The notes: generated by a model not told the origin, from the letters alone. DNA of 32,000 nucleotides from Bacillus subtilis subsp. subtilis str. 168 (GCF_000009045.1 NC_000964.3:2190001-2222000), one strand, 5' to 3'; counted from the first letter of the stretch, positions 5,564-30,033 are shown. Translations and numbers: made by a program.

Positions 5564-5785
5564 TTATGCTAAATACTTCTTCTTATGTGGTCTTCTATGT
5601 ACAAAATCAAATGCTATATCAACTTTTGCATTTTCCTTCTCCTCTGCTACTCGCTCCGTAACAACGATTAGTTGTCCATTTTCCTGGCGGTCAATGCTAT
5701 GGACTGAATATCCTTTAGCAGCGTAATATTCTCCGATAATCTCATCAACGTGGTTGCTAAGCAGATTCCTCTTTATCACCAACAT
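5564..5785 (-). CDS. yoqN: Hypothetical protein, about 71-73 aa
   Basis: The track start (GTG 5794) lies inside the SD GTGGAGG. The real start is ATG 5785, TTG 5782 or GTG 5779. Confidence 0.65.
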   Translation of the reverse strand: MLVIKRNLLSNHVDEIIGEYYAAKGYSVHSIDRQENGQLIVVTERVAEEKENAKVDIAFDFVHRRPHKKKYLA

Positions 5786-5985
5786 AACCTCCACTTATTT
5801 TATTTTTATTCTATAGTTTTTTATGATTCCATCCTATAATCCATCTCTCCATTTGCCTTCTCATCTATCACGACATTAACCGACACACAATTTCCATATG
5901 TATGGGAGTAATTTCGCTATTTTGCCTTCTTTAAAAACCATATAATGTAATTGCAATACATTAAAAGGAAATGGAGATGGTTCAA

Positions 5986-13021: not shown

Positions 13022-13041
13022 ATACATATTATTTGTATTTG
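13022..13041 (-). promoter_or_regulatory. SPBRE-type repeat copy (operator-like), between the yopV -10 box and SD
   Basis: ATACATATTATTTGTATTTG, with inverted half-sites ATACA/TGTAT. This is one of six copies in the window. Confidence 0.75.
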
Positions 13042-13046
13042 AATAA

Positions 13047-13075
13047 ACTATAACCCATCATTTAATATCTGTCAA
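13047..13075 (-). promoter_or_regulatory. SigmaA-type promoter of the yopV-to-yoq operon
   Basis: On the minus strand: TTGACA, 17 nt, TATAGT. Confidence 0.65.
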
Positions 13076-13377: not shown

Positions 13378-13596
13378 TTACTCAGGCAATTCTTCTGTAT
13401 TTGTTATTTCATATTCCATATCACTTAATTTAAAATTTTCAACTGATCCGTCAGCTTTTAAAAACGAGACTTCTTTAGATAAAAGTAAATTTTCACAAAT
13501 CCTGGTTACTAATGTTTCAGAGACTTCTGGACTATCTGCTTTGTTTTTGAGTACAATCTCCAGATTCAGTGCAATATTGTTTAAATAACCTGCCAT
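13378..13596 (-). CDS. yopT: Hypothetical protein, 72 aa
   Basis: Track ORF trimmed to the second ATG at 13596 (MAGYLNN...), 7 nt after AGGAG. Confidence 0.65.
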   Translation of the reverse strand: MAGYLNNIALNLEIVLKNKADSPEVSETLVTRICENLLLSKEVSFLKADGSVENFKLSDMEYEITNTEELPE

Positions 13597-13630: not shown

Positions 13631-13762
13631 CCCTTAAGGTGTTAAGGGAACGTGCGTTCTGTTTTGTATAATCATTATACATAGAAAGTAGGTGTTATGC
13701 TAGTGGTTATTTATCGGCTTCGTATGGTATGATATGTATTATGTCTTTCCATAACAGAACGC
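13631..13762. promoter_or_regulatory. Divergent yopT / yopS control region with nested inverted repeats and back-to-back TATAAT boxes
   Basis: CCCTTAA-ggtg-TTAAGGG (13631-13648) and GAACGtgCGTTC (13648-13659). A 17-bp palindrome TGTATAAT-c-ATTATACA (13665-13681) gives TATAAT on both strands. GCGTTCTGTT (13654-13663) is inverted with AACAGAACGC (13753-13762). Confidence 0.5.
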
Positions 13763-14028: not shown

Positions 14029-14144
14029 TCCTCCTTAGTAAACCATATGGTTTACATGACCATCTTACTACATTTAAACATGTATTTAAAGTGATTATTT
14101 TGTCTATTTTTGTCGAAATGCGAATTTTTTCACAATTTTTTGAG

Positions 14145-14191: not shown

Positions 14192-15169
14192 TTAAATGGT
14201 CGTCTCTTTTAGACCTAGTTCTTCTGCGTAATATTTATTAACTTCTTCCTCATTAATATAATCTTGCATTGAATAAACTGCTCGATATTTGGATTTTACC
14301 CTTAAATTAAAGTCATCTATAATCTGATACCTTACAGAGTTATCAATAACCCCTTTTTCTTTATAAAGCTGATATGCTCTATACAAATGACCAGATCTAA
14401 CAATAGTATTTGGTGTTAAAAAGTTAATTTTAAAGAACTCAGATATATCAGTAATTAGATTAGTTATGACAAATTTACTTGCTTGGCCGTCTCCTTTGTT
14501 GGACGTTCTTTTTGTTTTAACTACATAATCATTTTCAACTAAAAAGACTTCTTTTGTTTGGCCTTTTGCCTTCCCATTCTTTAATTTATATTTAGTTTCC
14601 TGAGCTGCATTTAAGGCAATAACAAGACATTCACTACTAACTTTTAGTTTTCGTTCACCGTGCTTTGAATCATAGAGGGTTAAAACGTTACCGTTAAGCA
14701 TTGCATCCTCAACTTGCTTCTTCGTTAAACTTAGCAATTCAGAATGAGCTAAACCAGAAACTCCTTCAAAAAGTAGTCTTAACACAGCCTTAGATTGATA
14801 ATTAACTAATTGATTTTCCATTTCCTCTAATTCACTATAAGTAATATATAATTTTTTGTCCCCGAGACATTCATAAAGCTCTTCTTCAGAAATAGTTCTT
14901 GCTAAATTGGTTAATCCTTTACTTAACTTATATGAAATTGCCCAATCAATATACAATGACAATAATGCTAAGGTTCTTCGAACACTACCGATAGTGGTTT
15001 GATCGAATGATCGTATAAGTTCTAAAATTTGCATTGATGTGAAATCATAAATGTCTTTATTATATAAAGTCTCAGTAATCTCTGCTTTTGCAAAAATAGG
15101 CCTCATCTGCATAACCATACCCTCAGATAAGGTATCTAAATATTTTTCCTTAATCTCACTATTGAACAT
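14192..15169 (-). CDS. yopR: Master lysogeny repressor with a degenerate tyrosine-recombinase fold (MrpR/SroF), 325 aa
   Basis: The track start TTG 15181 abuts AGGAG, so I reset to ATG 15169 (MFNSEIKEKY...). LLFEGVSGLAHSELLSLTKKQV resembles recombinase box I but lacks the catalytic Arg. Recognised as SPbeta YopR. Confidence 0.85.
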   Translation of the reverse strand: MFNSEIKEKYLDTLSEGMVMQMRPIFAKAEITETLYNKDIYDFTSMQILELIRSFDQTTIGSVRRTLALLSLYIDWAISYKLSKGLTNLARTISEEELYECLGDKKLYITYSELEEMENQLVNYQSKAVLRLLFEGVSGLAHSELLSLTKKQVEDAMLNGNVLTLYDSKHGERKLKVSSECLVIALNAAQETKYKLKNGKAKGQTKEVFLVENDYVVKTKRTSNKGDGQASKFVITNLITDISEFFKINFLTPNTIVRSGHLYRAYQLYKEKGVIDNSVRYQIIDDFNLRVKSKYRAVYSMQDYINEEEVNKYYAEELGLKETTI

Positions 15170-18544: not shown

Positions 18545-18565
18545 ATACATATTTTTTATCTTTTG
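18545..18565 (-). promoter_or_regulatory. Degenerate SPBRE-type repeat abutting the yopM SD
   Basis: ATACATATTTTTTATCTTTTG. The first 13 nt are identical to the consensus, and the right half-site is degenerate. Confidence 0.5.
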
Positions 18566-18705
18566 CATCTATAGCAATTGTAATGCATTACAAAAGGGAA
18601 GTAAAGATTTTTTTAACGACAAATAGCACATTCTACGCAATTTTTTTGCGAATGTGCTGCTTTGTAATGCATTTCATTTAATTAGGGTGTATGTATTTGA
18701 AGTTG
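18566..18705 (-). ncRNA. aimX: AimR-controlled leader / aimX-equivalent transcript region (boundaries approximate)
   Basis: This 140-nt stretch lies between the operator and yopM and has no SD-led ORF. It holds a long hairpin (18625-18658) flanked by TTGTAATGCA motifs. By analogy, arbitrium aimX lies directly downstream of the AimR site. Confidence 0.35.
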
Positions 18706-20197: not shown

Positions 20198-20226
20198 ATA
20201 ATACTATAGATCACATTACGAGTCAA
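20198..20226 (-). promoter_or_regulatory. SigmaA-type promoter of aimR-aimP
   Basis: On the minus strand: TTGACT, 17 nt, TATTAT. Confidence 0.65.
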
Positions 20227-20233
20227 TTATTTT

Positions 20234-20253
20234 ATACATATTTTTTGTATTTG
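20234..20253 (-). promoter_or_regulatory. SPBRE-type repeat copy, 7 nt upstream of the aimR -35 box
   Basis: ATACATATTTTTTGTATTTG, identical to the consensus. Confidence 0.75.
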
Positions 20254-20283
20254 TAATCTCTTTAAAATTCCAATTTTAACTAG

Positions 20284-27659: not shown

Positions 27660-27679
27660 ATACATATTATTTGTATTTG
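27660..27679 (-). promoter_or_regulatory. SPBRE-type repeat, promoter-proximal copy (between -10 and SD of yonX)
   Basis: ATACATATTATTTGTATTTG. Confidence 0.75.
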
Positions 27680-27687
27680 TTATTTAT

Positions 27688-27716
27688 ATTATAACTTGAT
27701 AATCTATAATAATCAA
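27688..27716 (-). promoter_or_regulatory. SigmaA-type promoter of yonX
   Basis: On the minus strand: TTGATT, 17 nt, TATAAT. SPBRE copies flank it on both sides. Confidence 0.7.
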
Positions 27717-27723
27717 TAATTAA

Positions 27724-27743
27724 ATACATATTTTTTGTATTTG
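27724..27743 (-). promoter_or_regulatory. SPBRE-type repeat, distal copy (7 nt upstream of the yonX -35 box)
   Basis: ATACATATTTTTTGTATTTG. Confidence 0.75.
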
Positions 27744-27761: not shown

Positions 27762-27860
27762 TTGCTCATGAGGGGGTTTGGGGGTGGTGTGAGCAAAAAT
27801 TGTTCAGGTGAGGAACGAACCGTTTTGAACAATTAGCAGCACCCCCATTCTCTTATTTTA
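27762..27860 (+). other. Nested-hairpin, G5/C5-containing intergenic element (candidate small RNA or attenuator; strand uncertain)
   Basis: TTGCTCA/TGAGCAA (27762-68 / 27790-96), GGGGGTG/CACCCCC (27780-86 / 27840-46) and ATTGTTCA/TGAACAAT (27799-806 / 27826-33). A T-rich tail follows on the plus strand. Confidence 0.35.
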
Positions 27861-29513: not shown

Positions 29514-29765
29514 TTAGTGTGACTTGTTTCTTAGTTTAAGGAATACACAATAGATGATCCATAACAATATGGCAATGATACATGTGACAACAAAAATTGT
29601 GTTGATTAGCGCCTGTCCTTCGCTGCTGAAGTAATCTTTGATGAGTTGAAACATTAAGAATAAGCCAATGAATGTGATATGGGTAAACCATAATGAGAAT
29701 CGTTTCATGTTTGCAATGTGCTTGATCATGTTATAATATGGGTAGGAACTAAAGGAGAAGTTCAT
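29514..29765 (-). CDS. yoyJ: Small membrane protein, 83 aa (second toxin of the yonT locus)
   Basis: Track ORF with two TM helices. It sits immediately downstream of yonT, as I recall for yoyJ. Confidence 0.7.
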   Translation of the reverse strand: MNFSFSSYPYYNMIKHIANMKRFSLWFTHITFIGLFLMFQLIKDYFSSEGQALINTIFVVTCIIAILLWIIYCVFLKLRNKSH

Positions 29766-29850
29766 TCCCCTTTAGCTTAGCTCTCATCGGCGTATACGTT
29801 GGCGTTGTCTCTTTGGTCGGAGCCGCTTGCGTATACGCTTTTTCTTTTTG
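29744..29850 (+). ncRNA. Antisense RNA over the yoyJ 5' end and yonT 3' end (SR6-type type I antitoxin); ends approximate
   Basis: The plus strand carries an extended -10 box, TGtTATAAT (29729-29737). Two palindromic GCGTATACG copies (29790-98 / 29829-38) can pair, followed by TTTTTCTTTTT. The inferred length is about 100 nt. Confidence 0.55.
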
Positions 29851-29987: not shown

Positions 29988-29996
29988 ATTATAACA
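29988..29996 (-). promoter_or_regulatory. Extended -10 element (TGtTATAAT) of yonT
   Basis: The minus strand reads TGTTATAAT, about 28 nt upstream of the yonT start. Confidence 0.55.
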
Positions 29997-30013: not shown

Positions 30014-30033
30014 ATACATATTTTTTATATTTG
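30014..30033 (-). promoter_or_regulatory. SPBRE-type repeat over the -35 region of yonT
   Basis: ATACATATTTTTTATATTTG, with one mismatch in the right half-site. Confidence 0.65.

Follow-up and report, generated by a model that had tools for sequence, protein, structure and literature searches.

Dispersed SPBRE repeats around the yonX promoter and elsewhere in the SPβ prophage: site set, box anatomy, promoter geometry and comparison with related phages

The repeat and its setting in the prophage

A stretch of 32,000 nucleotides of the Bacillus subtilis subsp. subtilis str. 168 chromosome (NC_000964.3:2190001-2222000; referred to below as the window) was analyzed for a dispersed 20-bp repeat, two copies of which flank the predicted promoter of yonX. 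A 3-kb piece around the yonX repeats matched the reverse strand of Bacillus phage SPBc2 (SPβ) at 100% identity, and end-to-end alignment showed the window to be the reverse complement of SPBc2 positions 64449-96448, with one mismatch in 32,000 bases. Gene names were taken from the annotation of the SPβ record, whose coordinates equal 96449 minus the window coordinate. The sole mismatch, at window position 14763, is nucleotide 407 of yopR (G407A) and lies in codon 136, which encodes Glu in the SPBc2 record and Gly in the window. Glu136 (G136E) is the heat-sensitive c2 allele of yopR (Kohm et al., PMC10516654). Because the only difference falls on the c2 site and the window carries Gly136, it was concluded that the window is wild-type SPβ as present in B. 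subtilis 168 and not the sequenced c2 mutant.

A search with the 20-mer ATACATATTTTTTGTATTTG, with up to three mismatches allowed, returned exactly six matches in the window, all on the plus strand (0.04 expected by chance; six matches in 0 of 100 shuffles). The copies were distributed over five loci, namely yopV, yopM, aimR/yopK, yonX (two copies) and yonT, and all of them lay between annotated genes and upstream of minus-strand genes (Table 1). Scanning the window with a weight matrix of 27 nt, for which all 12 genomic SPβ copies were used, gave the six sites 29.5-37.6 bits; since the next best window position scored only 16.4 bits, the list of six sites is complete. An earlier note, made from the sequence alone, had listed the same six start positions and had described a single orientation and intergenic placement before minus-strand transcription units, which was found for every copy. 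The end of the degenerate yopM copy, given there as 18565, is actually 18564.

Table 1. Positions of the repeats, predicted promoters and regulatory genes in the window.
Feature	Position	Strand	Remarks
SPBRE yopV	13022..13041	-	35.7 bits
Degenerate SPBRE yopM	18545..18564	-	3 mismatches, all in the 5' part; 29.5 bits, the weakest of the window
SPBRE aimR/yopK upstream	20234..20253	-	perfect 20-mer; 37.6 bits
SPBRE yonX proximal	27660..27679	-	1 mismatch; 33.0 bits
SPBRE yonX distal	27724..27743	-	perfect 20-mer; 33.9 bits
SPBRE yonT/spbT upstream	30014..30033	-	35.4 bits
Predicted yopV promoter	13075..13047	-	TTGACA-17-TATAGT; SPBRE 5 nt downstream of -10, before the ribosome-binding site
Predicted yopM promoter	18605..18577	-	TTTACT-17-TACAAT; SPBRE 12 nt downstream of -10, before the ribosome-binding site
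Predicted aimR promoter	20226..20198	-	TTGACT-17-TATTAT; SPBRE 7 nt upstream of -35
Predicted sigma-A promoter of yonX	27688..27716	-	TTGATT-17-TATAAT; 10/12 consensus matches; between the two SPBRE copies
yopR = mrpR = sroF, master repressor	14192..15169	-	325 aa; identical to SPBc2 YopR except Gly136
yopT = Sar(SPβ), antirepressor gene	13378..13596	-	function from preprint 10.1101/2025.11.27.690993

The complete SPβ record was then assembled and scanned with the 27-nt matrix, which is the prophage-wide motif search that the earlier note had proposed. Twelve sites scored 24-38.6 bits, and the next best position scored at most 16.4 bits. These sites belong to yonP, yonT, yonX (two), aimR, yopM, yopV, yorE, yorM, yorZ and yosX (two). 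Intergenic DNA makes up only 13.8% of the genome, yet it holds eleven of these sites (P = 3.6e-9). Every one of the 12 has the orientation of the gene downstream of it; this is true also of the yonP copy, as both it and its gene are on the opposite strand. The twelfth site is located 20 nt inside the annotated yorM coding sequence (SPβ record 110881-110920). Because the start of the yorM homologue in phage phi3T is annotated 17 nt downstream of an identical site, the SPβ yorM start codon is probably mis-annotated.

The repeat is the already described SPβ repeated element (SPBRE), so that its identification in the earlier note was correct but not new. SPBRE was found in silico and proposed as a repressor site (Lazarevic et al. 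1999, as cited in PMC10516654). The 12 sites fall exactly on the ten loci published for the repressor MrpR, the product of yopR. For this protein, chromatin affinity purification sequencing (ChAP-seq) showed occupancy at all ten loci (Kohm et al. 2023, PMC10516654), and a 15-bp MEME motif derived from the peaks matches SPBRE (PMC10516654). MrpR shifted a PaimR fragment in an electrophoretic mobility shift assay (EMSA), isothermal titration calorimetry was also performed on PaimR, and PaimR- and PyosX-lacZ fusions at amyE were repressed about five-fold by MrpR alone (PMC10516654). According to published data, the repressor gene expressed alone blocks phage reproduction. The fold of MrpR is that of a tyrosine recombinase, the recombinase function has been lost, and by size-exclusion chromatography the protein is a monomer in solution (Kohm et al. 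2023).

The gene for this repressor lies in the window (Table 1). Its product matched Pfam MrpR_N_CB and MrpR_C_cat (E 1e-22 and 5e-147) and the structures PDB 8A0A and 8BJV; no match to Pfam Phage_integrase was obtained at E up to 1, and only MrpR-specific families were hit. Since the sequence, the ten loci and the cognate repressor gene all coincide, the identity of the repeat with SPBRE follows, and it is highly probable that the six copies are operators bound by MrpR to hold SPβ lysogeny. The two proposals made earlier from the sequence, that one phage DNA-binding protein acts at these promoters and that it is YopR/MrpR, thus agree with the published ChAP-seq, EMSA and lacZ data. The target labels given there also hold, as yopK and yopL are annotated as AimR and AimP, and the antitoxin RNA SR6 is the partner of yonT.

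The SPBRE regulon, through which the master repressor is connected with the arbitrium receptor gene, a toxin gene, its own operon and early lytic operons, forms the core of the SPβ lysis-lysogeny switch; this has already been published and is not new biology. Occupancy of ten loci, PaimR binding in vitro, repression of PaimR and PyosX, the monomeric state of MrpR and the function of the antirepressor Sar were taken from publications (PMC10516654; 10.1101/2025.11.27.690993). The completeness of the site set, the intergenic and orientation bias, the asymmetric conservation, the box length, the promoter geometry and the co-variation with phi3T were computed here. The additions are the description of a longer, asymmetric and orientation-locked site abutting promoter hexamers, the arguments against explaining the paired sites by dimers or looping, and the comparison with phi3T, in which the operator was swapped and the promoter positions and copy number were kept.

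Box anatomy and promoter geometry

In the direction of transcription, the consensus of the 12 copies is CAAAnAyAAAwAATATGTAT. Positions 5, 7 and 11 are variable, and little or no variation is seen at positions 1-4, 6, 8-10 and 12-20. Conservation continues on the 3' side, where the flank ATAATAA (+21 to +27) is kept in 8-10 of the 12 copies, and the extended box reads (tAGA)CAAAnAyAAAwAATATGTAT(ATAATAA). The flanks were controlled with a pattern scan of IMG/VR, in which 52 unique sites in SPβ-like prophage contigs were compared with 54 chance matches in unrelated contigs; about half of the listed loci are chance matches in AT-rich contigs, and the scan is a flank control and not a census. Among the matches listed, information in the SPβ-like sites extended over about -3 to +27 (tAgA...AtaAtaA), and none was present in the flanks of the chance matches. 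Judged by this difference in flank conservation, the functional box is about 27-31 bp long, asymmetric and always co-oriented with transcription, as compared with the published 15-bp MEME motif of SPBRE. A box of this kind would fit a monomer-bound operator like that of phi3T and not a 17-bp palindrome.

The earlier note had interpreted the repeat as inverted half-sites, ATACA-N7-TGTAT. This dyad pairs positions 4-8 with 20-16, and it is literally present in 6 of the 12 copies, and five of these are among the six copies of the window. However, its partner positions are not equally conserved: the conserved base is found in 11/12 and 12/12 copies at positions 17 and 19, but in only 8/12 and 7/12 at the respective partners, positions 7 and 5. 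Similarly, the half-site TGTAT is intact in 11 copies and ATACA in 6. The bare dyad pattern was weakly enriched in the window (6 occurrences against 1.98 expected), and 3 of 100 shuffles reached 6. Because the partners are so unequally conserved, symmetry is not the feature that selection has kept, and the signal is the whole box and not the dyad. Functional inverted half-sites are therefore not supported, and the common orientation of all 12 sites also speaks against them.

Promoters were located by a consensus scan, and all of them except that of yonT are predictions. At yonX, the distal copy lies 7 nt upstream of the predicted -35 hexamer and the proximal copy 8 nt downstream of the -10 hexamer; the proximal copy spans the region where transcription is expected to start, and 20 nt separate its end from the yonX ATG. 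The spacing of 64 bp between these copies reported earlier was borne out when counted from start to start. The promoter between them had been called perfect, which is true of its -10 hexamer; the -35 hexamer is TTGATT, and the total is 10/12.

The 7-nt offset of the repeat from the -35 hexamer, which had been noticed at aimR and at the distal yonX copy, was confirmed by the scan. Because the 3' flank belongs to the conserved box, this apparent gap is the 3' remainder of the 27-bp box, which consequently abuts the predicted -35 hexamer at aimR (20227-20253) and at the distal yonX copy (27717-27743). The aimR repeat with its flanks also forms a weaker promoter-like sequence, ATTACA-17-TAAAAT (9/12; window 20229-20257, minus strand), in which the box is the spacer. 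This sequence echoes the embedded class of promoters, TAGACA-17-TATAAT, found elsewhere in the phage.

Placement between the -10 hexamer and the Shine-Dalgarno sequence, as previously stated for yopV, the proximal yonX copy and yopM, was also found in the scan. The yopM site heads the operon of the repressor itself, yopMNOPQR (sroA-F). For yonT, the consensus scan gave no minus-strand promoter. An extended -10 element, TGTTATAAT, was read by eye at 29988-29996 upstream of yonT, and the repeat lies over and upstream of the -35 position that this element implies. The earlier placement of the yonT copy over the -35 region thus agrees with the reading by eye, whereas the scan called no promoter there. 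For yonT, a transcription start site determined by primer extension is reported by Reif et al. (2018). Five copies outside the window (yonP, yorE, yorM, yorZ and yosX distal) lie inside TAGACA-17-TAtAAT promoters, and the box fills the spacer. This spacer-embedded form is the consensus form among the IMG/VR sites of SPβ-like prophages.

Comparison with SPβ-like phages

The YopR homologues of sequenced phages fell into two classes, being either at least 99% or about 30% (below 35%) identical to YopR. The former class includes SPβ, SPR, Goe11, Goe13 and several SPbetaL phages; the latter includes phi3T and others. The SPR protein was 100% identical and those of Goe11 and Goe13, relatives of Goe12, at least 99.7% identical; YopR of Goe12 itself was not among the matches listed. 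Both SPR and Goe12 retain a yonX-type promoter with two SPBRE copies, and their homology with SPβ ends right after the proximal copy, where other genes follow. The window segment 27654-27830, comprising the yonX module and an upstream block, is near-identical in both phages. This upstream block, at about 27764-27830, is a GC-rich sequence of 67 bp with an inverted repeat, TTGTTCA...TGAACAA, and is itself near-identical in SPR and Goe12. A search of Rfam with the GC-rich block and elsewhere revealed no structured RNA except SR6.

In phi3T, SPBRE was absent except for one relic copy at the yorM homologue (101478-101497). The box of the phi3T repressor SroF, whose core in transcription orientation is AGAATAAAAATAAAAT, was found co-oriented at the homologues of yonP, yonT, aimR, sroA/yopM, yorE, yorZ and yosX (two copies), as well as at the yonX position (two copies) and the yopV position. 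The pair at the yonX position is 89 bp apart and flanks TTGTTA-17-TATACT, the yosX pair is 87 bp apart, and the aimR box is next to a -35 hexamer TTGAAA. When the regions upstream of yosX and aimR were aligned between SPβ and phi3T, the flanks were conserved and the operator was exchanged.

The SroF box of phi3T (CAGTAATTTTATTTTTATTCTTAATG, 10.1101/2025.11.27.690993) resembles SPBRE in its homologous promoters, its co-orientation, its central A-tract, its pairing at the yonX position and at yosX, and in being bound by a homologous repressor of integrase fold. The two differ in that the box sequences are unrelated, the repressors are about 30% identical and no cross-immunity has been reported (10.1101/2025.11.27.690993). 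Another difference is found at yosX, where the phi3T box lies upstream of TAGACA, whereas SPBRE lies in the promoter spacer. In the SroF complex, as solved by crystallography, a monomer nearly encircles the 26-bp box, which has a central A-tract, and reads 24 of its 26 bp; no oligomer was seen (10.1101/2025.11.27.690993). Because the same promoters, copy number and orientation are associated with a different box where the repressor is different, this co-variation is, at the level of sequence comparison, strong evidence that the repeat is the operator of the repressor.

Boxes of the phi3T type were also observed in SPβ. The core AGAATAAAAATAAAAT occurs without mismatch at window 5797-5812 on the minus strand (0.01 expected), directly before the ribosome-binding site of yoqN (5564-5782) and co-oriented with this gene, and phi3T has an identical box before its yoqN homologue. 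Additional boxes of this type are present in the SPβ record at 129175-129200, 132761-132786 and 120654-120679; one of them is near-intact and lies directly 5' of TAGACA beside the distal yosX SPBRE, one lies upstream of yotJ and one inside bnrdI. Both SPβ and phi3T thus carry mixed operator types. The yoqN box could be either an orphan operator that serves a heterologous repressor or a remnant of recombination. It is conceivable, but in our estimate rather unlikely, that co-resident or superinfecting SPβ-like repressors regulate subsets of each other's genes and form a network of partial cross-immunity, in which a directional roadblock of the stoperator type, set up by a monomeric clamp, would explain the co-orientation of the boxes. 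A simpler interpretation takes the additional heterologous boxes as inert leftovers of mosaic recombination.

Proposed mode of repression and alternative explanations

By analogy with the phi3T homologue, one MrpR monomer most probably clamps each box through its core-binding and catalytic-like domains and would sterically exclude RNA polymerase. The box would do so from three positions: adjoining the -35 hexamer (aimR and yonX distal) or overlapping it (yonT); covering the start site or early transcribed region (yopV, yonX proximal and yopM); and, outside the window, filling the spacer of TAGACA-17-TATAAT promoters (yonP, yorE, yorM, yorZ and yosX distal). The monomer clamp of SPβ and the steric block at each position are thus inferred from the homologous complex and the promoter geometry. 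Since the weakest site of the window heads the operon of the repressor itself, negative autoregulation that takes place only at a high repressor level is suggested for yopM.

A two-fold symmetric operator bound by a repressor dimer, with the two yonX copies bridged into a promoter-trapping loop as for lambda CI, lac or gal, would account for the literal dyads, five of which are in the window, and for the paired sites that flank or overlap the promoters of yonX and yosX. Moreover, proteins of the tyrosine-recombinase fold usually bind inverted arms as dimers and synapse as tetramers. However, the dyad partners are unequally conserved and the half-site pattern is barely enriched, 7 nt of additional conservation are found on the 3' side only, and the single orientation of 12/12 sites relative to transcription would be needless for a symmetric site. 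The pair spacings were 64 bp (yonX of SPβ and SPR), 66 bp (Goe12), 68 bp (yosX of SPβ) and 87 and 89 bp (phi3T), which correspond to 6.1, 6.3, 6.5, 8.3 and 8.5 helical turns; with a spread of about 0.4 turn, they share no common phase. MrpR is a monomer by size-exclusion chromatography, and SroF of phi3T is a monomer on an asymmetric 26-bp box. Looping between the yonX copies, which the earlier note had considered compatible with their arrangement, is therefore not supported, and a symmetric, dimer-bound operator is considered very unlikely. The fold of MrpR, the second integrase-like gene, yopP, in the same operon and the end of SPβ homology with SPR and Goe12 at the proximal yonX copy might also be explained if the repeats were relic or active recombination sites for cassette exchange among SPβ-like phages, served by an integrase-family protein such as YopP. 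This is extremely unlikely: MrpR lacks the catalytic residues and the recombinase function according to published data and gave no Phage_integrase match, the sites have no crossover-type symmetry, and the argument from homology concerns the single breakpoint examined, whereas in phages, mosaic boundaries commonly fall at promoters even when no dedicated recombinase is present.

Three copies lie between the predicted -10 hexamer and the Shine-Dalgarno sequence, and it could be supposed that an AUACA...UGUAU hairpin in the 5' untranslated regions of yopV, yonX (proximal copy) and yopM controls translation or mRNA stability. The predicted hairpins had energies of -0.7 to -3.4 kcal/mol and were no better than those of shuffled sequence (z -0.22, -0.10 and +0.91); the remaining copies are located inside promoters or upstream of them and are untranscribed, and Rfam returned nothing at these copies. 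A role of the dyad at the RNA level is thus effectively refuted and can be regarded as next to impossible. Participation of a partner from the sro operon (SroE/YopQ or SroD/YopP), which would read SPBRE together with MrpR or stabilize MrpR on the box, is unlikely. In its favor, MrpR preferred SPBRE over attR DNA roughly 2- to 4-fold in EMSA, and the authors proposed extra specificity factors; SroE is a second repressor needed for lysogeny, and stabilization of the SroF-DNA complex is one stated hypothesis for it; and yopP, yopQ and yopR are adjacent in the window. On the other hand, 24 of 26 bp are read in the crystal by phi3T SroF alone, the repressor gene alone blocks phage reproduction, and MrpR alone represses PaimR and PyosX at amyE.

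Several points weigh against MrpR-bound SPBRE operators as the explanation of the repeats, or against the details given above. The in vitro preference of MrpR for SPBRE over attR DNA is modest, and additional specificity factors in vivo were suggested (PMC10516654). The second repressor, SroE/YopQ, is required for lysogeny (10.1101/2025.11.27.690993). Since yonT mRNA is detectable in lysogens (Reif et al. 2018), repression of yonT is incomplete. The monomeric clamp on SPBRE is extrapolated from a homologue that is 30% identical, and the weaker aimR promoter ATTACA-17-TAAAAT, if it were the one used, would place the box in the spacer.

Among known systems, SPBRE appears functionally closer to the SroF boxes of phi3T and to the L5 mycobacteriophage stoperators than to either lambda operators or the core sites of recombinases. 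The L5 stoperators (Brown et al. 1997) are reportedly numerous, dispersed, asymmetric sites of one orientation in short intergenic regions that are bound by a monomeric repressor, gp71. As with SPBRE, they are asymmetric, all have one orientation relative to transcription and in part lie downstream of promoters, from where the L5 sites are able to block transcription; unlike MrpR and SPBRE, gp71 is a helix-turn-helix protein, and its 13-bp sites number about 30 as compared with 12. By this analogy, the three window copies between the -10 hexamer and the ribosome-binding site would be compatible with a stoperator-like block of elongation, although their position is not diagnostic. Lambda CI with OR/OL shares with SPBRE a master repressor, operators that overlap promoters and a weakest site that is probably autoregulatory. 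However, lambda operators are 17-bp near-palindromes at two loci that are bound by cooperative dimers with long-range looping. In addition, lambda CI is inactivated by RecA-mediated cleavage, whereas MrpR is removed by an antirepressor (10.1101/2025.11.27.690993). The sites loxP, dif and the attP core are likewise bound by a clamping protein with core-binding and catalytic-type domains, and ATACA-N7-TGTAT superficially looks like two inverted recombinase arms around a 6-8 bp spacer. In contrast to these core sites, SPBRE shows no symmetric conservation and is not known to involve catalysis, a dimer or a tetramer, and its base read-out would be extensive and not sparse.

The antirepressor is YopT (Sar), which is controlled by LexA and relieves repression after SOS induction (10.1101/2025.11.27.690993). 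Once LexA is cleaved, YopT/Sar can be expressed and removes the repressor from SPBRE. A LexA (Cheo) box, GAACGCACGTTC, occupies 13647-13660, between a closely preceding TATAAT and yopT, and this arrangement of sequence elements is consistent with an SOS-controlled Sar circuit. Direct action of LexA at the SPBRE promoters was also considered and rejected: among these regions, a good LexA box was present only at yopT, and the other matches were at chance level. The SR6 antitoxin RNA was located at 29746-29849 on the plus strand (Rfam, 128 bits), antisense to the 3' end of yonT. This match and the report of Reif et al. (2018) confirm that yonT, beside SPBRE, is the toxin gene in a type I toxin-antitoxin pair.

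Two annotated perfect palindromes were observed near the repressor operon, namely TTGTAATGCATTACAA at 18578-18593, over the yopM -10 hexamer, and GTAAACCATATGGTTTAC at 14038-14055, between yopR and yopS. Their sequences differ from each other and are unrelated to SPBRE. They may be operators of the small helix-turn-helix proteins YopO or YopS.

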